Sequence record: MN022785.1
Direction: 5' to 3' (one strand)
Length of the DNA stretch: 64,000 bases
From: Escherichia phage VEc20
A model generated the notes under the pieces. It did not search any database and was not told the DNA's origin. It saw nothing but the letters and a program-made list of their open reading frames with translations. Shown here piece by piece: positions 6,525 through 24,993 of the stretch (positions within the stretch are counted from its first letter, which is position 1; every line of letters starts with the position of its first letter). A program made the position numbers and the translations under genes.

Positions 6525-7028
6525 CTAGCTTACACGAACATTAATCACTGCGCTGCGAGGAACGACAGAATACTCTCCAGCATGAACTACATTAAGAAGT
6601 TCAACGCCATCTTCAATCCACTGGTCAGTTACCCAACCGCCGACCGGATTCGCGAATGGACGACGAATGTAAACTGCCTTACACAACAAATCAGTCGGGT
6701 CTTCAATTTTTTCAACTGGTGCCACATACATAGAAACTAAATCCATATCAATATGGGATTTTTCCTGTTCTTCTTTTTCAATTTCTGTCAATAGACTAAA
6801 ATCTTTTTCATAAATAAGAAGCGATGACACCATTCCATAATAGTTTCTAATTTCAATATACATCATGCCGATAAGAATTCCGCTATTAACACTAATAACA
6901 GTAAAAGGATATCCGCCAGTTAAAGCAAGAAGTTCACAAAACTTATTATGAGCTGTATTAGACAGTACCGGAAAATTCTTAATTTCATCAAATTTTTTCA
7001 ATTGATAAACAGCATTATTTTTAATCAT
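6525..7028 (-). CDS. hypothetical protein, paralog of ORF 5960..6451 (shared C-terminal domain)
   Basis: 167 aa; C-terminus DQWIEDGVELLNVVHAGEYSVVP vs DQWVEDGVKLYNAVFLGTYKVIP. Confidence 0.55.
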   Translation of the reverse strand: MIKNNAVYQLKKFDEIKNFPVLSNTAHNKFCELLALTGGYPFTVISVNSGILIGMMYIEIRNYYGMVSSLLIYEKDFSLLTEIEKEEQEKSHIDMDLVSMYVAPVEKIEDPTDLLCKAVYIRRPFANPVGGWVTDQWIEDGVELLNVVHAGEYSVVPRSAVINVRVS

Positions 7029-7038
7029 AATTTTCTCT

Positions 7039-7539
7039 TTAATCTAAGGTAATAAAGCCTTTTAATTCGGCATGCGATTTGCGGAACATTACTTGATGTC
7101 CGCCAATGATAACTTGGTCATCTGGTACTTCGTATACAGCAAGATAAAATCCTTTCGAAGCTAATTCTTCACGCTCTTCTCGTGTGAACCATCTCATCAT
7201 ATCATATTCGCTAGCGAAAGCAAAATGATAAAGAGCTATAAACCATCCTGGAATATGATATTCTACTCCAACATAATCTTTCTTGAACTTAGTATTAATT
7301 ACTATATTAGCGTTTTTAACTAATAGTTTATCTTCGTGTGGTAAAGGAATTCTTTTATTATTATCGCTATGATGCATAAAATTAGGTCTGTCATAACCTA
7401 CGTGTAATAGCCACTCTTCGCTCCATGAATCTATTATACTCCTGTACGGCGTTATTTGAACACAAAGATTTCGACGTATTGTTATAGCATCTTCATAATC
7501 AAGAATACTAAACGATGATTCAACACGATAAATTTTCAT
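7039..7539 (-). CDS. hypothetical protein
   Basis: ORF track 7039..7578; start trimmed to ATG at 7539 with GAGGA RBS because the 5' extension overlaps promoter. Confidence 0.5.
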   Translation of the reverse strand: MKIYRVESSFSILDYEDAITIRRNLCVQITPYRSIIDSWSEEWLLHVGYDRPNFMHHSDNNKRIPLPHEDKLLVKNANIVINTKFKKDYVGVEYHIPGWFIALYHFAFASEYDMMRWFTREEREELASKGFYLAVYEVPDDQVIIGGHQVMFRKSHAELKGFITLD

Positions 7540-7563
7540 TTTATTATCCTCAGTAGCTATGGT

Positions 7564-7596
7564 GTTATAATACCACAACTAACCGAGGAAGTAAAC
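7564..7596 (-). promoter_or_regulatory. T4 early-type promoter
   Basis: GTTTAC -35 and GGTATTATAA -10 region on minus strand. Confidence 0.45.
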
Positions 7597-7602
7597 AACT
7601 TT

Positions 7603-8286
7603 TTATCGTTTTGTTGGAAGAGACAGAGGATCGCACTCTTCCTCTGACGGAGCATCTTCAAGACCCATAGCGTATCGCAAAGCATACTTCATCATCAGGA
7701 TGTCTTTCGCACAGTCATGAATAGAATCATGCGCAACGAATCCATCTAAAGTTCCTTTTGGAAGAGGACACGTGGTCATATCACGAACAAGCAGAAGTGC
7801 TTCAATTCTGGTACGAATATCACGCTGATTCCAGAATTTACATGGTTCTAACTTAAATGTGTCAAGCTCATTCTCAGAAACACCATTAAAACGTTGAATA
7901 TCACGAATAAGATCGACTAAAATTGGAAAATCAAACGACATTCCACGGCACCAGCCTTGAGATTTCCAAGGATCGATATTATGTGCATTGATGTAATCAT
8001 TAAATTTTGCAATACCATCGATAGTGCTTACATCTTCATCTGATGGTGCAATATTTTTTCGAGCTTCAGGAGATTGATTCTTCCACCATTCGATAGTGCT
8101 TTTAGTAAAAAGACGATGTCCTTTTTGGCTTTTTAAATCAAACTTGATTTTAATGCCGCGTGAAACTAATTCATCAAATGTTTCAACTACTTCTGGATTA
8201 GGGTCAAAGGCAATAACAGCCAAATCAATAACAGCTGCCTTTTCACCGCTTCCCATTGTTTCAAAATCTATAATAAAATCAAACAT
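7603..8286 (-). CDS. dexA: exonuclease A (DEDD 3'-5' exonuclease)
   Basis: 227-aa ORF, size and position match T4 dexA; acidic catalytic motifs (DFETMG). Confidence 0.8.
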   Translation of the reverse strand: MFDFIIDFETMGSGEKAAVIDLAVIAFDPNPEVVETFDELVSRGIKIKFDLKSQKGHRLFTKSTIEWWKNQSPEARKNIAPSDEDVSTIDGIAKFNDYINAHNIDPWKSQGWCRGMSFDFPILVDLIRDIQRFNGVSENELDTFKLEPCKFWNQRDIRTRIEALLLVRDMTTCPLPKGTLDGFVAHDSIHDCAKDILMMKYALRYAMGLEDAPSEEECDPLSLPTKR

Positions 8287-8528
8287 TAAATTTTCCTCGC
8301 TAAATCGCGAATTTGGCCTACAGTATAGTCTTGAATATAAACTTTATTAATAGGTTCATCAATAAATTTTGCCATAGATTCAATATCTTTTTGCATCTCT
8401 TCAAGACTGTATATTATCTTTAAAGCTTTTTCGCGAATAGTAATATTTTCAGGACCAGAATTTTTCTCAATGACAGCTTTAACATTTGTCATAAGAGATT
8501 TAAACTGACACCAACTTAATTCAATCAT
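8286..8528 (-). CDS. hypothetical protein (dexA.1 position)
   Basis: 80-aa ORF. Confidence 0.5.
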   Translation of the reverse strand: MIELSWCQFKSLMTNVKAVIEKNSGPENITIREKALKIIYSLEEMQKDIESMAKFIDEPINKVYIQDYTVGQIRDLARKI

Positions 8529-8781
8529 TAATAATCGCCTTATAAAGATAGCTAATTTCGCCTAAAATATAATCATTGATTGTAACAGTTTTCACTTCAC
8601 CGCAAAAGAATTCTAACGCAATCAAATCTCGTTCAATTTCTTCCAATTGAAGCATTAACTTGCCTGATTCAATTTTCACGTTTTTGCGATTTTTACTATA
8701 AGCTATTTCATAAATTTCGCTCACTTTATCTTGAAGCAGATAAAACTGGTCTTTAGTTATTTCCACGAATAGCTTCCTCAA
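8521..8781 (-). CDS. hypothetical protein (dexA.2 position)
   Basis: 86-aa ORF. Confidence 0.5.
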   Translation of the reverse strand: MRKLFVEITKDQFYLLQDKVSEIYEIAYSKNRKNVKIESGKLMLQLEEIERDLIALEFFCGEVKTVTINDYILGEISYLYKAIIND

Positions 8782-9013
8782 ATTTAATCAGCAGCTTACA
8801 GACACTTTCATCTAATGTAATTACCGTGTCTGTATTACTATGATATGATTGTTTTTCAATTCGTTTAATTGCTAGTATAGTATCACTTATAAGATTAAGT
8901 TTATAAAGGAGCTCAGCTCCTGTTACCATAACACTGAGGTTATCTTGCTTATCAGTATGCTTCTTTATACCATCTATTAGACGATTTAAATATTTTGAAT
9001 TGATGTTAATCAT
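8753..9013 (-). CDS. hypothetical protein
   Basis: 86-aa ORF. Confidence 0.45.
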   Translation of the reverse strand: MININSKYLNRLIDGIKKHTDKQDNLSVMVTGAELLYKLNLISDTILAIKRIEKQSYHSNTDTVITLDESVCKLLIKFEEAIRGNN

Positions 9014-9019
9014 ATATCC

Positions 9020-10339
9020 TCACACATAAAACACATCATAACGACCACGAGTAACACCAACATAAAGAAGCTGCTGAGCTAGTTCAGCGTCTGCATAATG
9101 AATACAAGGCGTATAAATGAAAGCACGGTCTACAGACATACCTTGAGCTTTATGGAATGTTGATGCAGGAAGTGCTTTCACTTTACTAAACTGTGATTTA
9201 GCATCCCAAAAATCACTCCATGGAGCTTTTCCGCCTTTGTTCCAATTTTTATAAGTTTCTGCCGTTTTACCTAAAAATAGGTTAAACTTATATAACTCTT
9301 CATCAGATGAAATTATTTTAATCTTTTCACGATAATATTCATCATCGCCGTAAGTTTCTACTGTTAAATCCCAATGACGAATTAAGTATTCTCCAGGAAC
9401 ACCACGAGCTTTAACAAACGTCGATGTATACTCTGCTTCTATAATACGAACTAATTGTCCGTTATTAAAAATAATTTCTGACACAGGCTTTCCATCAATT
9501 TTATATGTTTTAATTAATGGTTCCTGCATTACAATAATTTCACCGACAATAAAATCTTTATCAGTTTCAAAAATCTTTTTACGAATAATGCTATTTAACT
9601 TGTCAACAGATTTATTTGTAAATGCCATTACGCGATTTTCAAACAAATCGTCTAGTGATTTTACGATTGAAAAATAATTTACCATAAAATCGCGTAAAGC
9701 GGTATCACCAGTAAATCCACGTACTCCATGGCCGTCAACAACTTTATCATAAATCCACTTACCGTTGCGAACATCAGTAGCTACATCAATAATAGGAGCA
9801 TTACTGCGTTTAACTTCAGTGAGTTCACACTGATAAAAATCTTTATGTGTAAAGAATGGACTGATATAAGCAGTATTTTCTCCTGGGTCAACAGGTCTAA
9901 TTTGCTTATTATCACCTATTCCAATTATAGTACACCACGGCGGGATAGTTGAAAGCAGAATTTTAAATAGCTTTCTATCATACATTGACACTTCATCGCA
10001 GATTAATACCCTGCATTTAGCTAAATCTGGTACTTCCTTCTGCTCAAAGAGGACATTTTCTTCATATGTTACAGGGTTAATTTTAAGAATACTATGAATA
10101 GTACTTGCTTCTTTCCCTGATAGTTTTGAAAGAATCTTTTTAGCTGCATGAGTAGGAGCTGCTAAAATAATACCAGTTTCACCCGTAGATATTAAAGCTT
10201 CAATGATGAACTTAGTAAGAGTAGTCTTACCGGTACCGGCAGGTCCATTAATAGTTACATGATGTTTCTTTTCTTTAATAGCCTTCATAACAATGTTAAA
10301 GGCATTTTTCTGGCCTTCGGTCAAATCATCAAATGTCAT
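9020..10339 (-). CDS. dda: Dda DNA helicase (SF1B)
   Basis: 439-aa ORF; Walker A GPAGTGKT; sequence recognisable as T4 Dda. Confidence 0.9.
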   Translation of the reverse strand: MTFDDLTEGQKNAFNIVMKAIKEKKHHVTINGPAGTGKTTLTKFIIEALISTGETGIILAAPTHAAKKILSKLSGKEASTIHSILKINPVTYEENVLFEQKEVPDLAKCRVLICDEVSMYDRKLFKILLSTIPPWCTIIGIGDNKQIRPVDPGENTAYISPFFTHKDFYQCELTEVKRSNAPIIDVATDVRNGKWIYDKVVDGHGVRGFTGDTALRDFMVNYFSIVKSLDDLFENRVMAFTNKSVDKLNSIIRKKIFETDKDFIVGEIIVMQEPLIKTYKIDGKPVSEIIFNNGQLVRIIEAEYTSTFVKARGVPGEYLIRHWDLTVETYGDDEYYREKIKIISSDEELYKFNLFLGKTAETYKNWNKGGKAPWSDFWDAKSQFSKVKALPASTFHKAQGMSVDRAFIYTPCIHYADAELAQQLLYVGVTRGRYDVFYV

Positions 10340-10647
10340 CGTAAATTCCCTGCAATTGGTATACTAACAATACGCCCAGTATCTAAAATTCGCTGATATA
10401 ATCTTTGCGTGTCTACGTCAGGCTTAACATGTTTAACTTCTATTTTATTAAACCAAAATTTACGTGGAGTCTCAACTAATCTTGGAATTCCTTTACCTAA
10501 AGCTAGTCGATACTGCTCTTTAAGAGTGGTAAATACTTTATCAGCAATCTTCCATTCAAAAAATACAGCAGGACGATGTTCATCAAGTGGAACTGGCGCC
10601 GTAAATCCGTCTTTGTCTCGGTAAACTATCGCATATACATAAACCAT
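10336..10647 (-). CDS. hypothetical protein (dda.1 position)
   Basis: 103-aa ORF. Confidence 0.55.
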   Translation of the reverse strand: MVYVYAIVYRDKDGFTAPVPLDEHRPAVFFEWKIADKVFTTLKEQYRLALGKGIPRLVETPRKFWFNKIEVKHVKPDVDTQRLYQRILDTGRIVSIPIAGNLR

Positions 10648-10648
10648 A

Positions 10649-11395
10649 TTATCCTCGGATAAGTTTAAAAATTGAACAATTTAGCGGGTATCCTCTTTTC
10701 AGTTTAAGTTTATCAATAAAAGACAAGTTTTGATACCGCTCTACACCTTGAATAATTTTATCACACATATCATATTGCATTTCTGCTTCTGACAACTTTT
10801 TCACAGTTTTCCAATCCGAGCCTTTAAGAAGAACGTTCAATTTAACAACTTCAGTTCCTTCTGCTATACGAGAACCATCAATACGAGCTTTGAGTGCTAC
10901 AATCGTTAGCTTAACGTCAGAGGTCTGTTTTGATTTAGAAAGCTGAGAAATGTGCTCAATTCGGTTTTCACGTTTTTTCTGTATAGCTTTAATTTGATTA
11001 TAAGTCTTTTTGATTTTAGCCCATTTCTTTTCATCTAAATTTAGTTTATAAACTTTTTTCGCAGATGAACGACCAATTCGCAAAGCAAATAAATCACGCT
11101 TTTCAATCAACTCTTCTAAAGTATAATCAGAACGAAATGTATTGTACTTTTTCTTTACTGCAATAACATTCCCTTTAATGTATCCAACGTTATTATCAAA
11201 ACGTTCTAATGATAATTTCTCTCCTTCAATACGATTATCAAAAGGTTCTCCCGAGTAAGCACAAACTTTCTGATCTAAAATGTTCTTAATGTAATTGAAG
11301 TCTAAGTTAAAATCTTTAGAACGTCTTTTTGCAGATGCCTGAGTATGCTCTAGACGACGTTTAATTTTACGAATTTGGTTATTAGACAGCTTCAT
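10649..11395 (-). CDS. hypothetical basic protein (srd position in T4 order)
   Basis: 248-aa ORF between dda.1 and modA; positional. Confidence 0.5.
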   Translation of the reverse strand: MKLSNNQIRKIKRRLEHTQASAKRRSKDFNLDFNYIKNILDQKVCAYSGEPFDNRIEGEKLSLERFDNNVGYIKGNVIAVKKKYNTFRSDYTLEELIEKRDLFALRIGRSSAKKVYKLNLDEKKWAKIKKTYNQIKAIQKKRENRIEHISQLSKSKQTSDVKLTIVALKARIDGSRIAEGTEVVKLNVLLKGSDWKTVKKLSEAEMQYDMCDKIIQGVERYQNLSFIDKLKLKRGYPLNCSIFKLIRG

Positions 11396-11427
11396 ATTTT
11401 TCTCACATCTTACGGACGGTTAACTAC

Positions 11428-11461
11428 TTATACTATAACATTTTTACTTTAACTTGTAAAC
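11428..11461 (-). promoter_or_regulatory. T4 early-type promoter upstream of ORF 10649..11395
   Basis: GTTTAC, 17 nt, TGTTATAGT on minus strand. Confidence 0.45.
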
Positions 11462-11471
11462 AACTTTATGA

Positions 11472-11500
11472 AAAATGCTTTAAAACTTTCATGGTATAAT
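11472..11500 (+). promoter_or_regulatory. plus-strand MotA-box middle-promoter-like element (aaaaaTGCTTTA, 12 nt, TATAAT), antisense to modA
   Basis: TGCTTTA at 11476-11482, 12-nt spacer, TATAAT at 11495-11500 preceded by TGG. Confidence 0.35.
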
Positions 11501-11517
11501 GAATCTAAGTCCTTCCA

Positions 11518-12120
11518 TTATAGATTAAATCCTTCAAAATCAAGAGTATAGATAGTATATGTTGAATACTTTTTGTACTCATATCTATCTGCAATTCTAA
11601 ATACACTTCCAGCTGGTATCATTACTTCTTGTTCATCTGAAACTAATTCCATATTACGATAACGATGACTATCCGGAAACTTAAAGTTTGGATTGTATTC
11701 TTTACAGCGTAGAGCTTTTATAGCATACTCCTGGAAATTGAATACCATAGGAGCTTTGAATTCAAAAATAACTTGTGTGTTATACTCTAAACCGGAAGCA
11801 AAATGTAGAGCTATATTTTTATCATATGAAGCTGATACTACTTTATCAAATATAATAGTATCAATTCCTTGATTTAACACCTGCTTAGTCTCAGCTGGAA
11901 CACCTCTCCAAAGAGGTTTATCGTTTGGAACCAAACGAGATTTGATTATTTCATTTAACCAAGAATGATCGTCTGGTTTATTAGTAATACAATGAATTAA
12001 AAGTTCAATTTCAGATAAATTAAACCCTTCAGAAAGTAATTCTTCACGAATAGAAGCACGCACCGATGCATCCATTGATTTTATTTTAAAATCTTTTAGT
12101 TGCATTACTGAGTATTTCAT
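11518..12120 (-). CDS. modA: ADP-ribosyltransferase ModA
   Basis: 200-aa ORF, size and position match; tandem with 207-aa ORF. Confidence 0.7.
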   Translation of the reverse strand: MKYSVMQLKDFKIKSMDASVRASIREELLSEGFNLSEIELLIHCITNKPDDHSWLNEIIKSRLVPNDKPLWRGVPAETKQVLNQGIDTIIFDKVVSASYDKNIALHFASGLEYNTQVIFEFKAPMVFNFQEYAIKALRCKEYNPNFKFPDSHRYRNMELVSDEQEVMIPAGSVFRIADRYEYKKYSTYTIYTLDFEGFNL

Positions 12121-12740
12121 TCAACTACCTCAATATCATAAACTTTAAATGTTCCAAATGAATCGTGTAATTTTTCTTTTGAAATAGAAGTTATTCTATA
12201 CTTTCCAATTGGAATCATCCATTCTTGTTCACGCACAATCATCATTAAGTTATCAGTACGCTCTGAATCTAGCCCATCAGTATCTTCATACGTGTACTTA
12301 AACTCAGTATTAGGAGAAGAAAGTATAATATCGCTGATATGGTCAGAATAATTAAAAGCTTTATCAGTTTTTAAGCGAAATATTATTTCAGTGAAATATT
12401 CAGCATAAGAAAAAGAACACGCTGTATGCAAACTAGTAGTAAATGAATCTACTCTGTTCGTTGAAAACACTTCTCCAACTTGTAAATCTTTAATGAGTTC
12501 TTTTGTCGATTTTGATATACCACGATATAGCTGATAAGGCGATTTAGTTAAATGCTTTTTAACGATTTTATTCAACTGCTGATGAAGAGCTTCATTCTTT
12601 TTGGCTTCCATACATTGCCAAAGAACTGACTGCTCAAAGTCAGTAAATTTTTCACAGACTTTTTTATACATATCATATTGAAAATCGACACTTTCAGCTT
12701 TTATAGATAACTGTTCAACATCTGCGAGATTAATAATCAT
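12117..12740 (-). CDS. modB: ADP-ribosyltransferase ModB
   Basis: 207-aa ORF, size and position match T4 modB. Confidence 0.7.
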   Translation of the reverse strand: MIINLADVEQLSIKAESVDFQYDMYKKVCEKFTDFEQSVLWQCMEAKKNEALHQQLNKIVKKHLTKSPYQLYRGISKSTKELIKDLQVGEVFSTNRVDSFTTSLHTACSFSYAEYFTEIIFRLKTDKAFNYSDHISDIILSSPNTEFKYTYEDTDGLDSERTDNLMMIVREQEWMIPIGKYRITSISKEKLHDSFGTFKVYDIEVVE

Positions 12741-12768
12741 GATAGCCTCCGTATACTTCAGAAGCTAT

Positions 12769-12796
12769 CATATCATCGTTAGAAAGGAAAGTAAAC
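12769..12796 (-). promoter_or_regulatory. T4 early-type promoter upstream of modB
   Basis: GTTTAC, 17 nt, TGATATGAT. Confidence 0.45.
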
Positions 12797-12807
12797 AACT
12801 TTTTGAA

Positions 12808-12990
12808 TTATTTTGCCCAGGGAGCCCAAGGCGGAGGGTCAAGATGGTATGAAGCTAGTTCTTCTAGAAGAGCATCTGGGGCTTCAATTCCATAATTCTG
12901 TAATACTATACGGTACTCTTTCTTATAATCACTAGAATCATTCTGGATATTCATAGAATGATTATCTTCTAACATCTCAAATAAATCCAT
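12808..12990 (-). CDS. hypothetical protein
   Basis: 60-aa ORF. Confidence 0.45.
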   Translation of the reverse strand: MDLFEMLEDNHSMNIQNDSSDYKKEYRIVLQNYGIEAPDALLEELASYHLDPPPWAPWAK

Positions 12991-12998
12991 ATTAATTC

Positions 12999-13469
12999 CT
13001 AGCGATAAAAACCAAAATAACGATTAGCTTCAATAATCTTTCTTTCTTCTTCGGACATTCTCCAGCGTAGTCCAACGTCAAAATGAGCCCAGACCATCTT
13101 AACAAATGCATTTATATCTTTAATATCTTCAATAATGAATGTTTTACTTTTCGAAGGTTGACTCGCTAATTTAACTTTATCATCTTCAAACAGGTCAAAA
13201 AGACCATATTCATGAGCTCTTTTATAGCCTTTAATAGTTAAAGCTTCAGAAGAAGAAAACGGTGAATCAGTATTCTGCAAAATATCTTCAGTATGCTTTA
13301 TAATTAGAATAATATTTTCTGGATATTTTCTTTCTTTTATATCTTTAATTAAAAAATCCGGATTTTCTGCTAAAGGAATAATTAATGAGCATTTTTTATC
13401 AAGTGCATTTACTGATTTACCTTCTTTAGACATAAATTCTATTGAATAATGTTTTGCTACTTCAATCAT
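12999..13469 (-). CDS. hypothetical protein
   Basis: 156-aa ORF. Confidence 0.55.
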
Positions 13470-13626
13470 GTGATTTCCTTTTGCCTACTAATGGGCCGTC
13501 AGGAATTTTGTTTTCCTGGATATATTTCTCATTTTCTTCCATCATTTTACTGCCAATTTTAAGAAGCAAATCCAGTGCTTCATTTGCTTTAGCCTTGGCC
13601 TCTTCTAGCGTCATATCTCTGTTCAT
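13462..13626 (-). CDS. hypothetical small protein (54 aa)
   Basis: hand-translated; ATGA overlaps at both ends. Confidence 0.35.
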
Positions 13627-13826
13627 GATTTATCCCCATAGATATCTCTCATCAATTTAAGCGCTGAGCGTTCTAATTTCTTTTCTTTCTCAGCACTAAT
13701 CATTGATTTCATCCATTCTTCTGATTCGTTCTGCATTTCTTTATTTGCTTGTTCAACCCAACCATCATCAATATACATCGAGTTTGGTCTATTGAACCAT
13801 TCAAGCATCTTCTTCAGAGCTTTCAT
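13623..13826 (-). CDS. hypothetical protein
   Basis: 67-aa ORF. Confidence 0.5.
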
Positions 13827-14298
13827 TTGTTTTACCTAAAACAACAGTAGGAGCATCATCAAATTCATGAATTTTGAGCAAATTTGGATGTAAACTATTC
13901 CATACAGAAGAAATAAAGTATGATAAAGCATCTTCACTCGCAATTATAAATTTATTTCCTTTATCTATTTTCCAACTATATACTGAATCGTACGAATAAA
14001 AAGATAAAGGTTTATCATTATATTGTTCTGCGCTAACATTAATGTATTCTGATTTAGTAAATGCTTCAATTGCTCTAAACGGAATATTTGGTACAGTTTC
14101 AATAATACCAATCTTTTTAAGTTTTATTTCAGCATCTTCTGGAACTGGCATTGAAACGAAATTTTCTACGAGATACATTGGGTCACAATAACCCTTATCA
14201 ATCATTACTGCTACAGTAATTGGAACATCTTTAGCAAATGACAAACTATTACTGCTAATATACATTTCAAACAAAATCGCTTCCATAATTTTCCTCAA
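13801..14298 (-). CDS. hypothetical protein
   Basis: 165-aa ORF. Confidence 0.55.
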
Positions 14299-14633
14299 TC
14301 ACAAGATGTAGATGAACAACTAGAATCACAAGAACTTCCACATGAATCGCCCGTCCACACATGAACAGGAACATTAGTATCATATGAATCAGAACTAGAC
14401 TGTGTATTCTGCGTATTAGATGATGTAGGTGTTGACCAACGCCAAGGATTTTTATAATATTCCTGGGCTTCTTCATAAGTCATAGTAACTGCTTCTACTG
14501 TTCCATCTCCCATATAAACATATTCAACTACAGTTAAAGGAAGGTAGTCATTTGAAATAGGAACTACACCTTCTCCGGGAGTTGTAGAGAAAAAATCCGT
14601 AAAGAAACTTTTAAACCAATTAAAGATAAACAT
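14295..14633 (-). CDS. small membrane-anchored protein with Cys/Ser-rich C-terminal tail
   Basis: ORF track 14295..14678; start trimmed to ATG 14633 (TAATG overlap); hydrophobic N-terminus, tail [18 protein letters not shown]. Confidence 0.5.
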
Positions 14634-14845
14634 TACAAAAAGCCTCTTTGAAATTCGACTCTTTGAAATCCACCCCAATCAGTGTATCGCATTTCAGCAT
14701 TGAACTCGACTGAACCATCTGCATGCATCATGAATGAATGCGTGACGATATCACAATCCCAGCTTTTCATACCCCATTTATCAGAGATAGCTTTATCAAG
14801 AACCTTCTGGAGGTCTTCATTTGGTTTAATCCAACGATTTAACAT
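14633..14845 (-). CDS. hypothetical protein
   Basis: 70-aa ORF with GAGGAG RBS. Confidence 0.55.
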   Translation of the reverse strand: MLNRWIKPNEDLQKVLDKAISDKWGMKSWDCDIVTHSFMMHADGSVEFNAEMRYTDWGGFQRVEFQRGFL

Positions 14846-14870
14846 AGTGTTCTCCTCTATAAGATATTTT

Positions 14871-14902
14871 TATTATACCACACTCATTTTGACATGTAAA
14901 CC
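14871..14902 (-). promoter_or_regulatory. T4 early-type promoter (GTTTAC, 18 nt, TGGTATAAT)
   Basis: perfect extended -10 on minus strand upstream of ORF 14633..14845. Confidence 0.55.
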
Positions 14903-14914
14903 ATAAAATGAAAA

Positions 14915-14936
14915 AAGGAATCCCGGAGGATTCCTT
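14915..14936 (-). terminator. rho-independent terminator after soc
   Basis: 9-bp stem aaggaatcc/ggattcctt, loop cgga, followed on minus strand by UUUUUCAUUUU. Confidence 0.6.
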
Positions 14937-14943
14937 AAATTAT

Positions 14944-15180
14944 TTAACCATCTATTGATGTAGGCGTAAACATTGCAGCATTCTTAGTTTTCCAGTCAGC
15001 TGCATCAGAAACTACAGTAGAATATGCTGCCTTTTCAGAAGGAAAGGTCTGATAATGAGAATCTGCAATACGATGCTCGTTAGAATAGATTTCAAACGGA
15101 ACAGAAACTTCCATACCTTTAACTTCTTTGCCTTCACCTGCTGGATGAGTAAAGGTCTTTATATTAACGAAACCACCCAT
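14944..15180 (-). CDS. soc: small outer capsid protein Soc
   Basis: 78-aa ORF; VNIKTF and HYQTFPSEKAAYSTV segments recognisable as Soc. Confidence 0.8.
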   Translation of the reverse strand: MGGFVNIKTFTHPAGEGKEVKGMEVSVPFEIYSNEHRIADSHYQTFPSEKAAYSTVVSDAADWKTKNAAMFTPTSIDG

Positions 15181-15210
15181 AATAAACTCCTTTATTGTTT
15201 AATTACAGGT

Positions 15211-15218
15211 GTATTTAT
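15211..15218 (-). promoter_or_regulatory. T4 late promoter TATAAATA upstream of soc
   Basis: plus strand tatttata = revcomp TATAAATA, about 30 nt upstream of soc ATG. Confidence 0.6.
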
Positions 15219-15389
15219 ATCAATCTTCAATGAAAACTTGTGCCAGGAATTCATGCTCATCTTGAATTTGTTTATATAAAGCCATTACAGCATTTATGTT
15301 AGAGCTATCTACTTTAAGTTGATAAGCATACCACTCATGTAAATTAATTAAAGCTTTTTGACGTCTAATAAATTCTTCTTTGGATATTT

Positions 15390-15599
15390 TCATTTTGAAT
15401 GCTCTATAATTAATTTTAAGGCTTCTTCACTGACAAAAATTTCGTCAGGACCTTTTTCTACAACCCAATCAACCCAATCAACCATACGAAGCTGATTAGA
15501 AAAGAGCTCACATACGAGCTCCTTGTCATAATCTTTAAATAGCTGGTCAATACGCTTCTTGCGGGCTTTCTTGAGCTGGCGTTTATTTAAACGAGCCAT
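15390..15599 (-). CDS. hypothetical basic protein
   Basis: 69-aa ORF between soc and 56. Confidence 0.5.
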   Translation of the reverse strand: MARLNKRQLKKARKKRIDQLFKDYDKELVCELFSNQLRMVDWVDWVVEKGPDEIFVSEEALKLIIEHSK

Positions 15600-16117
15600 T
15601 AATATCCTCTGTCTTGACGAGCGAAGTTTTCAGCATTTTTCAGATAATAAAGTTTAAAGATTTCCTCAGCTGACATTCCAAGAGCAATGAATTTATTCAT
15701 GAAAAAGTGAAATTGATCAATCAGTTCAAATTTAATTTCAAGCTGATCTTCGGGAGATAAATCTTGAATTTTCTTGGATTGCATTTCAGAATAACGTTTC
15801 TTCCAAGGTTTCCATACGGCAGAAGCTTCTTTTTCACCATTACTCATACCACCAAGAGAAGTATATAGCTCGCGAGTTTCATCTGCGATATAATCGTCTT
15901 GGTTTCGCAACCAAGCAAGAACTTCTCCTGCAGTTTCAAGTGAATCAGGATGACGATTTGTTTCTGGTTTATCATTAGCCAAACGAATCTGTAAAGACCG
16001 CTGCATATCAAGCATAACCTGCAATGGGTCAATATTGTGCATAATATTCTCAGCATATGCACGAGTTGCTTTATCAACACCTTCGATCAAATGAGCACAT
16101 TCATTAAAGTGAGCCAT
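15599..16117 (-). CDS. 56: dCTP pyrophosphatase gp56 (MazG-like)
   Basis: ORF track 15599..16210; true start taken as MAHFNECAHLIEG at 16117 with GGA RBS. Confidence 0.85.
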   Translation of the reverse strand: MAHFNECAHLIEGVDKATRAYAENIMHNIDPLQVMLDMQRSLQIRLANDKPETNRHPDSLETAGEVLAWLRNQDDYIADETRELYTSLGGMSNGEKEASAVWKPWKKRYSEMQSKKIQDLSPEDQLEIKFELIDQFHFFMNKFIALGMSAEEIFKLYYLKNAENFARQDRGY

Positions 16118-16188
16118 TATTTTTCCTTTCAATTCATGGATTAATAGATTAATTATACAATAAATATATAAAGCAATAAGGAGGACAT

Positions 16189-16389
16189 ATGGTACAAAAA
16201 TTAATGGCACTTGTTAATGCCATAAAAGGTAATAAGAAACGTATAGCTTTTACTATTTCTGCTATGATAGGAATTTTACTTTGGAATTTTGTTCTATCAC
16301 CTGTTGCAATTGCACATGGTATTAATATTCCAGTAGTTACTCTTGATACATTCGTAGATTTAGCATTTGCTTTAGTTGGGTTAATTTAA
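16189..16389 (+). CDS. small hydrophobic protein on plus strand (66 aa)
   Basis: canonical SD AAGGAGG 4-5 nt before ATG; hydrophobic segments; divergent from flanking genes. Confidence 0.45.
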   Translation: MVQKLMALVNAIKGNKKRIAFTISAMIGILLWNFVLSPVAIAHGINIPVVTLDTFVDLAFALVGLI

Positions 16390-17414
16390 ATCTTGGCATA
16401 TTTAGATAACCGCATTTTAGCCATCAACCCCTGGGCAATATTATTTTTCATATATTCCATAATTTGTTCAGGGGTTGCACCTTCCTTTCTAATCATATCA
16501 TTAACATCTTTTGATTTCCAGGGAGATTTATCCCAAAACATAACCCTTTCTCCTGCATCAACTAATTTAGTCATTCGCTTAATAGTGTCAGGATGACGAG
16601 GTTCATTATCTAAAACCCACACACGTCTATCTTTAAATGGAACAACTTCTAGGTCTAATTGACCACCTGTAATAGCTATACCATTTTCAATAAAAAGTGA
16701 ATCTATAGGTCCTTCTAGAACATATACATCACCATCTTTAACTCGTTCGACTCCATAGATTTTTGTTGCCTCAGGATAAGCTTTGATGGTGATATATTTT
16801 TGAGGAGCATCTTTCTTTAATGCACGTCCTTGAAAAGACTCAGCTTTTCCATTAGCATTATAAATTGGAATAACAAGACGAGGCTCAGGTATTTCCTTTT
16901 TATATGTTCCTGGTGCTATACTATTAACTAATTTAGGCCATTCAGTTGTAAACCAAAGATATTTCCATTTATCCTTTGGAATACAACGAGCTTTTACGTA
17001 TTTTATAATTGGATGGTCTTCCGCCAATTTATCTAGTCTAATGCATGACGGAAGAGATTTAATTATTTTCTTCTCAGGTTGTTTAGGAAGTTCTTTAGGT
17101 TTTTCTACTGGACGACTTTTACCTTTTTCTTTTCTTATTTCAAAGATATACTCACGATATAAATCAGGTTCAAACTCCTTTAAATATATTCCGATTGGTG
17201 CATGATAGTTACAGTTATAACAATGAATATTTCCTTCATTATTATCACCATAATACCATCCACGAGCTTTATTCTGGTCGGTTTTTGAATCTCCACAAAC
17301 AGGGCATCTAAACCGCAATTTAAAAGTTGAACTATTATTTACTTGTGTGAATTTAGGTAAATGAGCTAATGCACGATACGCAAACTCATTATCAATCCAA
17401 GGTATTGATGACAT
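16386..17414 (-). CDS. 61: DNA primase gp61
   Basis: 342-aa ORF; zinc-ribbon CPVCGDSK...CYNC and TOPRIM-like core; recognisable as T4 gp61. Confidence 0.9.
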   Translation of the reverse strand: MSSIPWIDNEFAYRALAHLPKFTQVNNSSTFKLRFRCPVCGDSKTDQNKARGWYYGDNNEGNIHCYNCNYHAPIGIYLKEFEPDLYREYIFEIRKEKGKSRPVEKPKELPKQPEKKIIKSLPSCIRLDKLAEDHPIIKYVKARCIPKDKWKYLWFTTEWPKLVNSIAPGTYKKEIPEPRLVIPIYNANGKAESFQGRALKKDAPQKYITIKAYPEATKIYGVERVKDGDVYVLEGPIDSLFIENGIAITGGQLDLEVVPFKDRRVWVLDNEPRHPDTIKRMTKLVDAGERVMFWDKSPWKSKDVNDMIRKEGATPEQIMEYMKNNIAQGLMAKMRLSKYAKI

Positions 17415-17416
17415 TT

Positions 17417-17581
17417 TTACTCTTCTTTTTCTTTAGATTCCTCTTTTTTCTTTTTAGGAATCTGCTCAGGACCTTTATTTACTACAGAGCCTGACGTTGT
17501 TCCAGTAGAGATATTTTCAGGATTACCACCTGAATCTCCAGCGACCATATCTTCTTTGATAAATTCTTTATATGTTTTCAT
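17417..17581 (-). CDS. hypothetical protein (61.1 position), 54 aa
   Basis: hand-translated MKTYKEFIKEDMVAGD...; stop adjacent to gene 61 start. Confidence 0.4.
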   Translation of the reverse strand: MKTYKEFIKEDMVAGDSGGNPENISTGTTSGSVVNKGPEQIPKKKKEESKEKEE

Positions 17582-17582
17582 A

Positions 17583-17939
17583 TTAACCTCTATTCATAAA
17601 AGCATTAAAAATTTGGTCATCAATAGATGGTGCAGTAATATTTTCTGCATCATTTAGCAAATCATTAATTTCATCAGATAGCATAACACATGTACCTTTA
17701 TTTCCTGTAATTGTTACTGCGCAATTACGAACGTTTTCTTTATTAAATTTTAGGTTAATATTTTCGTAATGAAAATCCTTTAATGCTGAATATATTTTTA
17801 AAATAAAATTGTCTTTTACTACAATAAACCCAACCTCACTATTAAAACGTGGTTCATGGAAACTGTAATAAACCTTTTCATCTATAAAATCGTATGAAAT
17901 TTTTTCCATTTTTAAATATGAAAATTCAGAACTATACAT
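17583..17939 (-). CDS. hypothetical protein (61.2 position)
   Basis: 118-aa ORF. Confidence 0.55.
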   Translation of the reverse strand: MYSSEFSYLKMEKISYDFIDEKVYYSFHEPRFNSEVGFIVVKDNFILKIYSALKDFHYENINLKFNKENVRNCAVTITGNKGTCVMLSDEINDLLNDAENITAPSIDDQIFNAFMNRG

Positions 17940-17951
17940 ACTAACCTCTAA

Positions 17952-18245
17952 TTACTCACCTACCACTTCAGCGATGATATTTTTGTTATTAAAGTTTTTA
18001 TCGCAATACAGAACATAATTATACTACATTACACCACCAGACTTAAGCTGTTTTTGCACTTCGGCTTTCATTTCAGGACGATCGCGCTCAACGATATTCA
18101 TAATATCTGCTTCAATTTGAGTTTCAACCTCAGTCTGATCAGCAGTCATAGACCATTCGCACAAATCTTTATCATAACCTGCCATAGCAGGCTGAGCAGC
18201 ACAAGAAGATAAAGCAAAAATTGTAGCAAAGATAAATTTTTTCAT
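17952..18245 (-). pseudogene. sp: spackle (61.3) homologue interrupted by in-frame TAG at codon 74
   Basis: 73-aa ORF with signal peptide ends at TAG (18024-18026); 23 more in-frame sense codons (YNYVLYCDKNFNNKNIIAEVVGE) run to TAA just before next gene's RBS; total 97 codons. Confidence 0.55.
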
Positions 18246-18271
18246 GATAATCTCCTCAGCAGTTTATGTTT

Positions 18272-18303
18272 ATATAGTATCTCAATTTCCAACAAAAGTA
18301 AAC
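18272..18303 (-). promoter_or_regulatory. T4 early-type promoter upstream of spackle homologue
   Basis: GTTTAC, 18 nt, TACTAT. Confidence 0.45.
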
Positions 18304-18305
18304 AG

Positions 18306-18563
18306 TTATTTTAAAACTTCTGCGTAATCACATGTTACAAACTGTTTCTCTAGCTTAACGATCTTACGAAAATACCTTTTACACTGACGAATCTGTCGCT
18401 TCGTAGGACGTACAGCAAACTTAATAAATTCAACTCGACCAAATGGAGGACTTTCTTCTGCTGGAATATCTAACACCAATTCCCACGTATCTGAAATAAG
18501 TGCTTTGAATTGCGTATTTTTCCTGACGTTATACGGAGTAGGTTTAAATAAAACAATATGCAT
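18306..18563 (-). CDS. hypothetical protein (61.4 position)
   Basis: ORF track 18306..18605; start trimmed to internal ATG to avoid overlap with dmd. Confidence 0.45.
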   Translation of the reverse strand: MHIVLFKPTPYNVRKNTQFKALISDTWELVLDIPAEESPPFGRVEFIKFAVRPTKRQIRQCKRYFRKIVKLEKQFVTCDYAEVLK

Positions 18564-18564
18564 A

Positions 18565-18747
18565 TTATCCTCGGCAATCCACTTCACACACTTTCTTGTC
18601 ATCAATGAAAGCTTTAACTAATGCTTTATTAACTTCGGCATATTGAGTAGTAGCCCATTGAACGTCATCTTTCATCATTGTAGTTTCTTTAGTAAACATG
18701 CTTTCATTCTTAAACCACCCCATAAAAACTACCTTTACCAATTCCAT
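18565..18747 (-). CDS. dmd: Dmd (61.5), inhibitor of host RnlA/LsoA toxins
   Basis: 60-aa ORF immediately downstream of gene 41; size and position match. Confidence 0.7.
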   Translation of the reverse strand: MELVKVVFMGWFKNESMFTKETTMMKDDVQWATTQYAEVNKALVKAFIDDKKVCEVDCRG

Positions 18748-18805
18748 AACAATCTCCTCATTTAACCAACAAGACTACTATACCATAGTCTTGTCAGCTT
18801 GTAAA

Positions 18806-20233
18806 CTAAAATTTTAATTCATTTGCCAAAGCATCTAACTGAGCTCGAGTGGATTCATTTCTTTGATAGCGATTCTGCTCAGCCTGAATCTGTTGTGAAC
18901 CTGCTACTTCGTTCACTTCAGTTGGAGTAGAATCTTGTTCAATTTCTACCCATTTTTGATTTCCTTTTTGAACACCCATCAAAAACTTATTCCATTTGTT
19001 CTTATCACCATATCGTGATTTGATTTGCTTAATGAGTTGTTGTTCAGCAGCTGCTAGCTCCTCGGTTTCAATGACCGCAAGCATAAAATCGGCTGTTGCT
19101 GGAAGACCAGCAGATTCTGCAATATCGCTCATGTTAACATCAGAAGAATCCCAAGCCTGTTTACCAACCTGTGCTGCAGTCCAAAGAACAGTTTCGGTTT
19201 CAACAGCAAGAGCACGCAATTCCTCTGCAATAGCTTTAACAGTTGTGTAACTATTTTCTGAATAAACTCTAATGCGGCAAGATTTACAAATACCTAGATA
19301 GTCGACAATAATGATTGTTGGAACAAAATTCTTCTTGAGCTTCAATTCGTTTAAAAGTGATCGAAATGTATTAGCGTCTGCTCCACCAGTAGGATATTGC
19401 TTAACGATTAAACGACCAAGGGTAGATTTCTCACGCCATTTTTCCATTTTTCCTTTATATTCAGCGTAAGAAATATGCCCATCATCAATGTCATCAAGAG
19501 AAACATCAAGCATGTTAGCGTCAATACGCTTAGCACAGACTTCTTCTGCCATTTCCATGGAAATGTAAAGAACGTTATGACCAAGCTGCAAATAATCTGC
19601 TGCTAATGAACAAAGTCCTAATGATTTACCGACGTTAACGCCAGCCATTAAAACGTTCAGTGTTCCAGTCTCAGCTCCGCCTTTAGTAATTTTGTTTAGA
19701 ATTCTGAGTTTAAATGGAACCTTACGAGCTTTATTCATATAAGATAGCCAACGTGCTTCATAGTCATCCATCCAATCATGGCCAACGTAGCTATCAAATG
19801 AAATTGATAATGCTTGGCGCATGATGTCAGGAATAGCACCTACATCTGGCATTTTCTTATTTCGTTTTTCTGGAGGAAGCTCAGCATTGGTTTGAATTTC
19901 GATTATTTTAGACGTAGCATTAAACATCGCCCTTTGCTGAACATATTTTTCTGTTTCTTTTATTAACCAGCTGTGGTCTTCTGGAGAATCAGCCAGTTTT
20001 GAAATAAGTGTTTTTACACCAGAATATTCTGTTTCAGTAAATGAACTATTTTCTAATGCAACATTTAACGCATTAATAGATGGAACGCTATGATACTCAT
20101 TAACATGAGATTTAATTAATTTGAATGTATTTTTAGCTGGACCACTTTCAAAATATTCTGAATCCATATATGGCCAAACTTTTGAAAAATAAGCTTGATC
20201 AAATATGAGATGAGAAAGAATAATTTCTACCAC
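18806..20233 (-). CDS. 41: replicative DNA helicase gp41 (DnaB-like)
   Basis: 475-aa ORF; Walker A GVNVGKS; size matches T4 gp41. Confidence 0.9.
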   Translation of the reverse strand: MVEIILSHLIFDQAYFSKVWPYMDSEYFESGPAKNTFKLIKSHVNEYHSVPSINALNVALENSSFTETEYSGVKTLISKLADSPEDHSWLIKETEKYVQQRAMFNATSKIIEIQTNAELPPEKRNKKMPDVGAIPDIMRQALSISFDSYVGHDWMDDYEARWLSYMNKARKVPFKLRILNKITKGGAETGTLNVLMAGVNVGKSLGLCSLAADYLQLGHNVLYISMEMAEEVCAKRIDANMLDVSLDDIDDGHISYAEYKGKMEKWREKSTLGRLIVKQYPTGGADANTFRSLLNELKLKKNFVPTIIIVDYLGICKSCRIRVYSENSYTTVKAIAEELRALAVETETVLWTAAQVGKQAWDSSDVNMSDIAESAGLPATADFMLAVIETEELAAAEQQLIKQIKSRYGDKNKWNKFLMGVQKGNQKWVEIEQDSTPTEVNEVAGSQQIQAEQNRYQRNESTRAQLDALANELKF

Positions 20234-20242
20234 ACTTACTCC

Positions 20243-20605
20243 TTAAAAGAATTTAAATTTTTTCTTTGACCTTTTATTAAATGCATCTTGCAGTTGCATT
20301 GTAATACATTTTTCTACATGAGGAGCTAACTCAGCTTTTCTTTCTTGGTCAAGAACAGCAAAGTCCATTACAACCTTTCCATCAACCCAATCCAGTTTAG
20401 TTACATACACTATATGTGTAGAACCATCTTCTAGTTTAATGACAATCTCCTGGATAACATTTTCCATAGCGGATTTAATTATCTTAAGAGATTCATTAAA
20501 AAGACGTTCTTTTCTTTCTTCTTCCCCCTCCGAAGAGGGGGATTCATCGATAATTTCTAGATCTAAATCTAAATCATCTTTATTCATTAAATTCTTCCAT
20601 ATCAC
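20243..20605 (-). CDS. 40: gp40 head-assembly accessory protein (positional)
   Basis: 120-aa acidic ORF between 41 and uvsX. Confidence 0.6.
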   Translation of the reverse strand: MIWKNLMNKDDLDLDLEIIDESPSSEGEEERKERLFNESLKIIKSAMENVIQEIVIKLEDGSTHIVYVTKLDWVDGKVVMDFAVLDQERKAELAPHVEKCITMQLQDAFNKRSKKKFKFF

Positions 20606-21761
20606 TTAACTGTTCTAGGTCAGTTTCTAAATCAGCAGCTGATTTACTTTTACTTTCTGGAGATTTAAATTTTTCAACCTTTGAGTTAATCAATTCATCA
20701 ACTTCAGCTTCAACAATTTCATTACTATCAATAGCACCTAACTGATAAGCACGTTTAATAGCATCTCGGAATGGTTGATGCTTAAATAAAGGACCCCAGA
20801 ATGTAGTGCAGTTGGTATCTTTTGCACGCCAAGATTTTTCTTCGCGAATCATCTCACCGGTTTCTTCATCAAGAAATTCACGGGCATACCAGCCATTTTT
20901 AGGTTTTACTACAAATCCTAATTCTAGAGCCATATCTAACAATCCAGAATAAGGATCGATACCACCGTCAAATTTAACATCAATAAAGAATTTACTTTTT
21001 TCTTTAACGGTACGAGATTTTTCTACATTTAGAACAAATTGATACCCCTGAAGATCAGAACCATCTTTAATCTGACGTTTACCGATAATGAATACAGTAT
21101 CAGCCGAATACATTACGCCTGTACCACCTGTCATCACGGTTTTACTAAACATTTCAATTGTTTCAATTGTATGGTTAACCGCAACACACGGAATATTTTT
21201 AATGCTAAAATAAGGAGTAACGATACGGAATAATGACTTCAGTGATTTAGCACGAGTCATATCTGCCACAGATTTTTCATTCAAGGCATCTTCCGTTTCT
21301 TTCTTAGAAGCCATATTACCAATTGAGTCGATGAATACTATAACCTTTTCACCACGCTCAATAGCTTCAAGCTGATTCACCATATCAATTTTCAGCTGTT
21401 CAACTGATTGAATTGGCGTATGAATTACACGTTCCGGGTCAACTCCCATGGATCGCAAATAAGCTGGAGTAATACCAAATTCGCTATCATAGAATAGACA
21501 AACCGCGTCAGGATATTTGTTCAAATATGCCGCAACCATAGTCAAAGACATATTTGATTTAAAGTGTTTAGAAGGCCCTGCGAAAATAGTTAAACCAGAC
21601 TGCATACCGCCATCAATCGCACCAGAAATAGCAATATTCAGCATTGGAATTTTTGTACGGATTACATCCTTTTCATTAAAGAATTTAGATGTAGTCAGTT
21701 CAGCAGTCATTTTAGAAGTGGAAGCTTTAATCAAACGGGATTTTAAATCTGCAATAGACAT
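20580..21761 (-). CDS. uvsX: UvsX recombinase (RecA-like)
   Basis: 393-aa ORF; Walker A GPSKHFKS; near-identical to remembered T4 UvsX. Confidence 0.95.
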   Translation of the reverse strand: MSIADLKSRLIKASTSKMTAELTTSKFFNEKDVIRTKIPMLNIAISGAIDGGMQSGLTIFAGPSKHFKSNMSLTMVAAYLNKYPDAVCLFYDSEFGITPAYLRSMGVDPERVIHTPIQSVEQLKIDMVNQLEAIERGEKVIVFIDSIGNMASKKETEDALNEKSVADMTRAKSLKSLFRIVTPYFSIKNIPCVAVNHTIETIEMFSKTVMTGGTGVMYSADTVFIIGKRQIKDGSDLQGYQFVLNVEKSRTVKEKSKFFIDVKFDGGIDPYSGLLDMALELGFVVKPKNGWYAREFLDEETGEMIREEKSWRAKDTNCTTFWGPLFKHQPFRDAIKRAYQLGAIDSNEIVEAEVDELINSKVEKFKSPESKSKSAADLETDLEQLSDMEEFNE

Positions 21762-21814
21762 TCATTTTTTCCATAGGCATCATTATATTTTCCTCACTGG
21801 TTAAAGATAGAGTA

Positions 21815-21838
21815 ATTATAACACAATAAATTTAGGCA
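21815..21838 (-). promoter_or_regulatory. MotA-box-like middle promoter upstream of uvsX
   Basis: minus strand TGCCTAA (one mismatch to TGCTTTA), 11 nt, TATAAT. Confidence 0.35.
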
Positions 21839-22681
21839 TTAATCAACTGCTATTGGATGAATAGCATTAAACTTATGAAATGCTTCTGATTTTTCTTTAC
21901 GTGAAACGCACATGCGAAGAACCTTTAATGGCTCGTCTTCTTCACCCAACGATTTTCGTTTTTCAATATTAGAAGTTTTCCAACGAGCTTGCTCTGGAAA
22001 CTCTCTATTGATTTGCTCAAGCGCTCTATTATGTTTAGAATTACTACGAATTGAACTGCACCCGCCAGGAGCTTGTGCTTTTCCAGATACAACCAGATAT
22101 TTGAACAAGGCCAAATGCGGATAACCTTGATTAATTAAATTGAGAAATGCATACATATCTTCGCACAAATCAATTTTTCCATACCCAATTTGTTCTGTCG
22201 TAAGTTTTCCAAGGTCATACCATGTATTCGTGAATCCATATGAGTTTTCACGATAATTGCCCCAAGATGAAGTAATTTTAAAAATTGGTAGACGAGCATG
22301 ACCGTGATAATACCCGCAATCCATGGCATCTTCAACGTATTGAATTAATTCATAGAACTGTTCACGAGTTAATTGATTAATTTTATCTACACGCCGTTTA
22401 TCGTCTCTCTTTCGTATTGAACTCATACGAATAGTAGTATCATCATCAATCATCCAGATTCGTTGACCTGCATACATATCAGTAATTGCTTTACGAGTAC
22501 CGGCAATTCCATTAACATCATCAGGAATAGTTACAATTTTAGCTCTAGACCCATAAGCATCATAATAAGCTTTTTCTTCGTGTTCACGCACTACAATATG
22601 GGGTTCATAATCAGTCGGAAACATATTAAGGGCAGAAACTGCCCCTACACGCTGATAACTTGGAATTACGAATTGAATCAT
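21839..22681 (-). CDS. GT-A-fold glycosyltransferase (DxD motif), possibly a beta-alpha glucosyltransferase acting on HMC DNA
   Basis: 280-aa ORF at the beta-gt position; WMIDDDTTIRM motif; not the 351-aa T4 beta-gt. Confidence 0.6.
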   Translation of the reverse strand: MIQFVIPSYQRVGAVSALNMFPTDYEPHIVVREHEEKAYYDAYGSRAKIVTIPDDVNGIAGTRKAITDMYAGQRIWMIDDDTTIRMSSIRKRDDKRRVDKINQLTREQFYELIQYVEDAMDCGYYHGHARLPIFKITSSWGNYRENSYGFTNTWYDLGKLTTEQIGYGKIDLCEDMYAFLNLINQGYPHLALFKYLVVSGKAQAPGGCSSIRSNSKHNRALEQINREFPEQARWKTSNIEKRKSLGEEDEPLKVLRMCVSRKEKSEAFHKFNAIHPIAVD

Positions 22682-24050: not shown

Positions 24051-24057
24051 TTAAACC

Positions 24058-24207
24058 TCAATTGATGCATTCATATTTAAATTGTAACAGTAATAAACCC
24101 CACCCTATGATAAGAGTTGGAATCATAGCAGGAACTGTTACGCTATAGTATATACTTATTATAACCATCAAGATTAAAAGCAATGCTGCTATAATTTTGC
24201 TTTTCAT
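24058..24207 (-). CDS. small membrane protein (49 aa)
   Basis: hand-translated MKSKIIAALLLILMVIISIYYS...; ATGA overlap with imm stop. Confidence 0.35.
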   Translation of the reverse strand: MKSKIIAALLLILMVIISIYYSVTVPAMIPTLIIGWGLLLLQFKYECIN

Positions 24208-24455: not shown

Positions 24456-24462
24456 GTTTTCC

Positions 24463-24855: not shown

Positions 24856-24876
24856 ATCCGTATTAGTTGATAGTTG

Positions 24877-24908: not shown

Positions 24909-24993
24909 GTTTTGTGAAAAATTTTTTAGGGAATTCTAAGGGTCCAGAATCATCTGTTTTTCATAAGTATAGATTTATATTACTTGTATGAAA

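Follow-up and report, generated by a model that had tools for sequence, protein, structure and literature searches.

Why would a T4-type phage carry a canonical middle promoter that points against every gene around it, and what could such a promoter do? We examined this question at the srd-modA junction of Escherichia phage VEc20 (MN022785.1), in a window comprising the whole 64,000-nt stretch of DNA analysed, and in T4 and related phages. The window comes from a Tequatrovirus (T4-type phage) which is colinear with T4 and about 98% identical to it across srd-modA-modB, and the srd-modA intergenic region (window 11380-11540) is identical in T4 (NC_000866), where the T4 coordinate is the window coordinate plus 390. 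The genes of the locus, in window coordinates, are the following:

9020-10339, minus strand: dda
10336-10647, minus strand: dda.1
10649-11395, minus strand: srd
11518-12120, minus strand: modA, encoding an RNA polymerase ADP-ribosyltransferase; in the predicted antisense transcript, +12 to +14 would be complementary to its stop codon
12117-12740, minus strand: modB

All of these neighbours are on the minus strand, and a plus-strand promoter at this place is indeed, as the preliminary description had it, opposite to every nearby gene. The motA (162967-163602) and asiA (160878-161150) genes are annotated in T4 and both lie outside the 64-kb window. In the T4 records (NC_000866, AF158101) and the related GenBank records that we inspected, no plus-strand feature is annotated at the site; the promoters annotated are minus-strand early promoters.

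The plus-strand sequence across the site is gaaaaaTGCTTTAaaactttcaTGgTATAATgaatctAagtcc, in which the following elements can be read (window coordinates):

11471-11475, plus strand: run of A
11473-11482, plus strand: MotA box AAATGCTTTA, matching (a/t)(a/t)(a/t)TGCTTtA at 10 of 10 positions, with its centre near -30
11476-11482, plus strand: TGCTTTA core of the MotA box
11483-11494, plus strand: 12-nt spacer from TGCTTTA to TATAAT, AAACTTTCATGG
11483-11491, plus strand: the part of this spacer that precedes the extended -10
11492-11500, plus strand: extended -10 element TGgTATAAT (TG at 11492-11493, TATAAT at 11495-11500)
11501-11517, plus strand: discriminator, predicted start (A 11507) and initial transcribed sequence, GAATCT followed from the predicted start on by AAGTCCTTCCA

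The consensus of T4 middle promoters is (a/t)(a/t)(a/t)TGCTTtA, separated by 12 ± 1 bp from TAtaaT, and roughly half of the promoters have TGn as well (PMC2988021), and the site has the MotA box, the 12-nt spacing, the TATAAT and the TGn. The coordinates and the description of the box, spacer and -10 given previously are a direct reading of the plus strand and are correct. The start, which had been placed near 11507, agrees with where PuvsY and PnrdC.7 have their mapped starts; by this register, A 11507, located 11 nt from the modA stop codon, is the predicted start. The start region made of GAATCT and AAGTCCTTCCA is common to PuvsY, PnrdC.7 and an orphan promoter between genes 3 and 2 of T4.

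Matches to the bare consensus are not rare, whereas the complete site greatly exceeds chance expectation. Per shuffled window, 0.29 matches to WWWTGCTTYA-N12-TANNNT are expected, and the window has two, while TGCTTYA-N12-TATAAT occurs once on the two strands of the 64 kb, at the site itself (11476-11500). We extracted from T4 the 58 middle promoters identified in Hinton 2010, a list from which the srd-modA promoter is absent, aligned their two blocks, and built a two-block matrix from the 47 that have a recognisable box; the srd-modA site is not among these. When both strands of T4 were scanned with this matrix, the srd-modA promoter ranked first of 337,806 positions with 24.0 bits, compared to 23.0 bits for PuvsY, and the remaining top scorers were nearly all known promoters on the minus strand. 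The top score in 40 dinucleotide-preserving shuffles of T4 was 21.0 bits, and none reached 23 bits. The original observation is thus confirmed, and with the top rank in T4 it is stronger than first stated. We consider it very unlikely that the site is a chance or relic match to the consensus that is inactive in vivo, for instance a PuvsY cassette copied by recombination or a sequence kept for a role of the minus strand, such as that of the 3′ end of modA or of a UP element for srd. The expectation of 0.29 minimal matches per window, the overlap of the A/T-rich part of the MotA box with the UP-like tract of the srd early promoter, and the absence of the site from the compiled list would all fit such a match; however, its score lies above that of every shuffle.

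The site is one of a four-member subclass in T4, in which a MotA box is combined with TGGTATAATGnnTCT followed, from the start on, by AAGyCC. The sequence TATAATnnnTCTAAG is found behind a MotA box at exactly four places in T4 (pattern TGGTATAATGnnTCTAAGyCC), given here in T4 coordinates:

11885, plus strand: the srd-modA site
53337, minus strand: PnrdC.7
75988, plus strand: the gene 3/2 orphan, an unlisted promoter with the second-best matrix score
115383, minus strand: PuvsY, the promoter of oriF

In both PuvsY and PnrdC.7, the start has been mapped to the A following TCT (T4 115371 and T4 53325, respectively). The site and PuvsY have in common a MotA box of the form TGCTT(t/c)A, the start register, and the identical 21-mer TGGTATAATGAATCTAAGTCC from -15 to +6, which is found in T4 only at these two places; the similarity extends to about +17 (xTCCAxT), and the downstream DNA is A+T-rich in both. 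They differ in that PuvsY has a 13-nt spacer and TGCTTCA, whereas the srd-modA site has a 12-nt spacer and TGCTTTA, and in that PuvsY is codirectional with its neighbours and drives uvsY, whereas the srd-modA site opposes its neighbours and has no ORF downstream. PnrdC.7 carries the signature TGGTATAATGgtTCT followed by AAGcCC, with its start mapped at the same A, but its MotA box (CGCTTTA) is weaker and it is oriented in the sense direction, with the nrdC.7 ORF 20 nt downstream of it. The genes driven by PuvsY are reduced about 100-fold in a motA-am infection (PMC6024815 Table S1), which implies that the PuvsY subclass is strongly MotA-dependent in vivo.

In the window, TGGTATAATGNNTCTAAGYCC is expected 0.00 times by chance and was found twice, at the srd-modA site and at the only other member of the PuvsY-type subclass present there:

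49508-49528, minus strand: PnrdC.7-type middle promoter TGGTATAATGGTTCTAAGCCC, with the box CGCTTTA upstream, located 20 nt upstream of a 134-aa ORF (49086-49490)

A search with the pattern GTATAATGGTTCTRAG returned mostly unrelated chance matches and added nothing to this set.

The gene 3/2 orphan lies outside the window, on the plus strand between genes 3 and 2 of T4 (NC_000866 75965-76000), and reads TAATGCTTTA-13-TATAAT GGGTCTAAGTCCCTTCCATT, with a matrix score of 23.4 bits. Like the srd-modA site, it has the subclass signature (TGGTATAATGGGTCTAAGTCCcTTCCATT), is on the plus strand and faces into an adjoining minus-strand gene, but it faces the late genes 2 and 4 and not early genes. RB69 and VR7 both have a PuvsY copy as well as a copy of the orphan on the gene 3 side. 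In VR7, the orphan promoter remains beside gene 3 despite the insertion of a mob endonuclease gene between genes 3 and 2.

Conservation was examined within the genus by aligning 18 distinct Tequatrovirus sequences, which diverge by up to about 7% over a 501-nt query spanning the region. The stretch from the extended -10 to +10 (11492-11516) is invariant among the 18, the only variation in the MotA box is a T/C exchange at 11481 (TGCTTTA or TGCTTCA) that the consensus allows, and the spacer has two variable positions, 11486 and 11491. Variable columns number 4 of 48 in the promoter half of the intergenic region compared to 20 of 74 in the srd-proximal half, including a 7-nt indel. This indel (ACATCTT, window 11405-11411) lies in the srd 5′ leader and divides the Tequatroviruses into two groups; the spacer of the srd early promoter is also polymorphic among them, at 11448-11452. 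BLAST similarity to other genera ends within the srd leader, beyond which the intergenic DNA is no longer alignable, and an IMG/VR search with ModA returned only six close loci. In other genera, the corresponding location nevertheless holds a MotA-box promoter. It likewise runs opposite to srd and the mod gene, and 0-30 nt separate its start from the stop codon of the mod gene:

Mosigvirus APCEc01: AAATGCTTTA-13-TATAAT GGTTCTGAGTTCC, 22.9 bits
Gaprivervirus VR7 and TH22: TAACGCTTTT-12-TATAAT GGTTCTAAGGTC, 17.7 bits
Enterobacter/Kosakonia CIP9-like phages: 16.6 bits
Pectobacterium phage PM2: 12.9 bits

The TATAAT is kept in all of these (Mosigvirus, Gaprivervirus, the CIP9-like phages and PM2), and the distance from the start to the mod stop codon is maintained at 11-27 nt in VR7 and APCEc01. 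Hence, the position and orientation are conserved in at least five phage groups, two of which, the CIP9-like phages and PM2, have an Srd with only about 35% identity to that of T4. That position, orientation and start-region sequence survive such divergence is our strongest argument that the promoter is used. It also speaks against a chance or relic match, as position and orientation are kept where the flanks have diverged, and so does the occurrence of the same -10 and start sequence in the sense orientation at PuvsY and PnrdC.7, with mapped starts. This sense use implies that the property common to the four members is promoter function and not a reading of the minus strand. In summary, a canonical plus-strand MotA-box promoter antisense to modA and modB is well supported by its sequence, its rank relative to known promoters, its paralogy to two mapped promoters and its conserved position and orientation.

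What the promoter could produce was considered from the DNA downstream of it, where the following transcript is predicted from the promoter:

11507-12740, plus strand: predicted transcript, non-coding, antisense to modA and, if long enough, also to modB

The earlier statement that no plus-strand ORF follows for 1.9 kb is essentially right, in that the plus-strand ORFs downstream are short, non-conserved and mostly begin with TTG (one example, at 11693-11872, encodes 59 aa), and ribosome-binding sites are missing from all of them. No plus-strand ORF with a start codon and ribosome-binding site conserved across five genera was found, and a coding function of this strand was rejected on these grounds. 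A structured small RNA was rejected as well, since the fold of the first 134 nt has a z of -0.01 relative to shuffles and its hairpins are unconserved. Weak terminator-like hairpins are present on the plus strand at 11902-11917 and 11921-11938, and no counterparts of these were found in APCEc01 and VR7. As a separate observation, plus-strand terminator-like hairpins also lie inside minus-strand genes at 12625-12644, 13499-13519 and 13563-13581; together with the two just mentioned, they make up five of the six hairpins detected on both strands, against 0.8 expected in shuffles, and each of the five is weak and without a conserved counterpart in APCEc01 or VR7. The next plus-strand gene after the site in T4 is gene 53, at 77.4 kb. 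With neither a conserved ORF nor a recognisable element downstream, any transcript would lack a coding function and be antisense to modA, as well as to modB if extended that far.

The explanation that we favour, and that we consider probable on the basis of the sequence comparisons, is that the srd-modA site is a genuine MotA/AsiA-dependent middle promoter of the PuvsY/PnrdC.7 subclass, with a non-coding antisense transcript that has a local, cis-acting effect. MotA would bind the box at 11473-11482, and the holoenzyme whose sigma-70 has been remodelled by AsiA (sigma appropriation) would use the extended -10 at 11492-11500. Initiation at A 11507 would then lead to plus-strand transcription into the 3′ end of modA and onward toward modB, giving an untranslated antisense RNA from the early-to-middle switch on. 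Such transcription may locally hinder the early modB-modA transcription that converges on it, and also the srd early promoter at its back, by polymerase collision, occlusion or duplex RNA rather than through a diffusible RNA product. The geometry is that of a cis-antisense RNA, with the promoter opposite its target and a predicted transcript that overlaps modA. We infer that the site fires in vivo and that its transcript has an effect.

Expression data that bear on this effect come from stranded RNA-seq of T4 wild type and motA-am, a knock-down allele, at 5 min only (PMC6024815 Table S1). In the wild-type host, the motA-am mutation had little effect on modA (0.88-fold, p = 0.27) and modB (1.11-fold, p = 0.44), and in the dksA host modA and modB were increased 1.8-fold and 1.6-fold in motA-am (PMC6024815). 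The unchanged modA and modB mRNA in motA-am does not support, and argues against, a strong antisense silencing at the level of mRNA abundance, although this indirect comparison is not decisive, as it uses a knock-down allele and a single time point. Hence, of the antisense reading in the preliminary description, the plus-strand middle promoter antisense to modA and modB stands, whereas the control of the toxic ADP-ribosyltransferases that it implied is not borne out by these mRNA levels. In the same dataset, the sense reads of modA and modB are the lowest of the region at 5 min, about 1,000 compared to 7,000-25,000 for dda.1 and dda, and srd, modA and modB are all up 1.7- to 2.7-fold in the dksA host (PMC6024815).

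The T4 dRNA-seq start-site map (GSE255091) reports 150 starts, 22 of them antisense, and the srd-modA start may be among the 22 antisense starts of this preprint. The “modA-modB” circNC target of the T4 dRNA-seq paper was considered as a candidate antisense RNA and rejected; its RT primer is identical to the plus strand, and the target is thus the sense mRNA. Literature searched for antisense promoters that depend on MotA, for anti-late RNA and for start-site maps of T4 yielded nothing specific.

A different reading concerns the divergent neighbour, the early promoter of srd:

11432-11460, minus strand: srd early promoter, TTTACA (11460-11455), 17 nt, TATAGT (11437-11432), with TG upstream and a start near 11425

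This promoter is annotated as “predicted early promoter” in related records, and its start and the plus-strand start are back to back, 82 bp apart. The zone of its UP element, at about 11463-11484, overlaps the MotA box, which is located at -48 to -57 of the srd promoter. It could be that the transcript is irrelevant and that the selected property is occupancy by MotA and RNA polymerase, which would shut down or tune the srd early promoter, or would block, head-on, early transcription that continues from modA into srd; we regard this as unlikely. In its favour are the back-to-back geometry, with the box in the -48 to -57 zone, and the srd mRNA, which is increased in motA-am (1.48-fold, p = 9e-4, and 1.87-fold in the dksA host), in contrast to modA and modB; the mechanism of early-promoter shut-off is, moreover, stated to be unknown (PMC2988021). 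However, the effect on srd is small and common to many early genes, 44% of which are up at least two-fold in motA-am (PMC6024815). The retention of the VR7 orphan beside gene 3 after the mob insertion is a hint that the anchor there is the divergent neighbour. At the srd-modA site, by contrast, srd and the mod gene are adjacent in all genomes examined, and the two anchors are therefore inseparable.

A role of the site in replication was also considered, given its likeness to PuvsY. The origins oriF and oriG consist of a promoter of the middle mode together with an unwinding element rich in A+T (PMC3016281), and the first of these components is present in the sequence of the srd-modA site. As an oriF-like element, the site would form a persistent R-loop in easily unwound downstream DNA, which would prime a clockwise leading strand or create a recombination hotspot, and the antisense relation to modA would be incidental. 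We consider this quite unlikely, although several features agree with it. Between -15 and about +17, the site almost duplicates the oriF promoter, and the 100 bp downstream fall at about the 8th percentile of stability of T4 50-bp windows, compared to the 8th-20th for oriF. The oriE and oriA origins are annotated at distances of 3-5 kb from the two orphans, the second of which is at T4 76.0 kb. P34i, which is located inside gene 34 and serves oriG, is likewise a middle promoter antisense within a gene. As P34i is MotA-dependent and opposes gene 34, antisense-oriented middle promoters have a precedent; it differs from the srd-modA site in having no TCTAAGyCC start region, in its location inside a late gene and not in an intergenic region beside early genes, and in its demonstrated role in an origin. 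oriF, but not the srd-modA site, is also a documented origin.

Other observations count against an origin. The early origins that genome-wide replication arrays give number five (A, C, E, F and G), none of them at 11.9 kb (PMC3016281), and the annotation puts oriA, which the P56/69 transcript primes, at 16763. The low duplex stability is unspecific: the region from +1 to +100 is 71-73% A+T, but PnrdC.7, which is an ordinary promoter, has a duplex of still lower stability there, and duplex stability thus does not discriminate an origin from ordinary promoters. In addition, the RNA would be C/U/A-rich and not G-rich. An identity of the site with oriA itself was rejected, as oriA is annotated at T4 16763. 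A locally acting antisense promoter of the PuvsY/PnrdC.7 subclass is the reading that we prefer.

The -6 to +6 segments of the subclass were compared across three genera, and the copies inside one genome are closer to each other than orthologues are between genera. In T4 (11885, 75988 and 115383), the segments are GAATCTAAGTCC twice and GGGTCTAAGTCC; in RB69 (L047:9601 and L049:163), they are GGTTTTAGGTCC and GGTTTTAGGTCT; and in VR7 (L042:1737, L044:1013 and L046:975), they are GGTTCTAGACCC, GGTTCTAGACCT and GGTTCTAAGGTC. This within-genome likeness suggests gene conversion between short repeats (concerted evolution), or a co-evolution with a genus-specific partner. It is conceivable, though in our view distinctly unlikely, that the two orphans (T4 11.9 kb and 76.0 kb) and PuvsY/oriF form a dedicated class, whose conserved -6 to +17 region would be read by an agent other than RNA polymerase, either an R-loop or priming mechanism, which would make the orphans unrecognised initiation sites of replication or recombination, or a trans-acting factor recognising the DNA or the 5′ end of the RNA. 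With regard to RB69, its uvsY CDS as annotated (NC_004928, 117104-117598; L047:9105-9599) abuts gene 25 and includes PuvsY (L047:9601, 19.7 bits) and the leader; the true start of uvsY is probably the downstream ATG (GAGAGAATATTATGAAGCTGG), as in T4.

T4 middle transcription is a textbook system, whose promoter catalogue is widely taken as near complete. The best and the second-best matches to its consensus in T4 are nonetheless unlisted, face backward, and are kept from T4 to Pectobacterium and Enterobacter phages. The promoter type is well established, and its antisense orientation is known from P34i/oriG; the srd-modA site itself is absent from the Hinton 2010 list, from the records inspected and from the literature searched. 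The finding bears on how early gene expression is shut off, an open question in PMC2988021, and on the use of R-loops by T4 origins other than oriF and oriG, an open question in PMC3016281. Owing to the close paralogy with the oriF promoter, both ideas can be tested by a few point mutations. If active, the orphan promoters would be a defined and mutable source of antisense transcription timed by MotA, covering the genes of the toxic ADP-ribosyltransferases and also the late genes 2 and 4.
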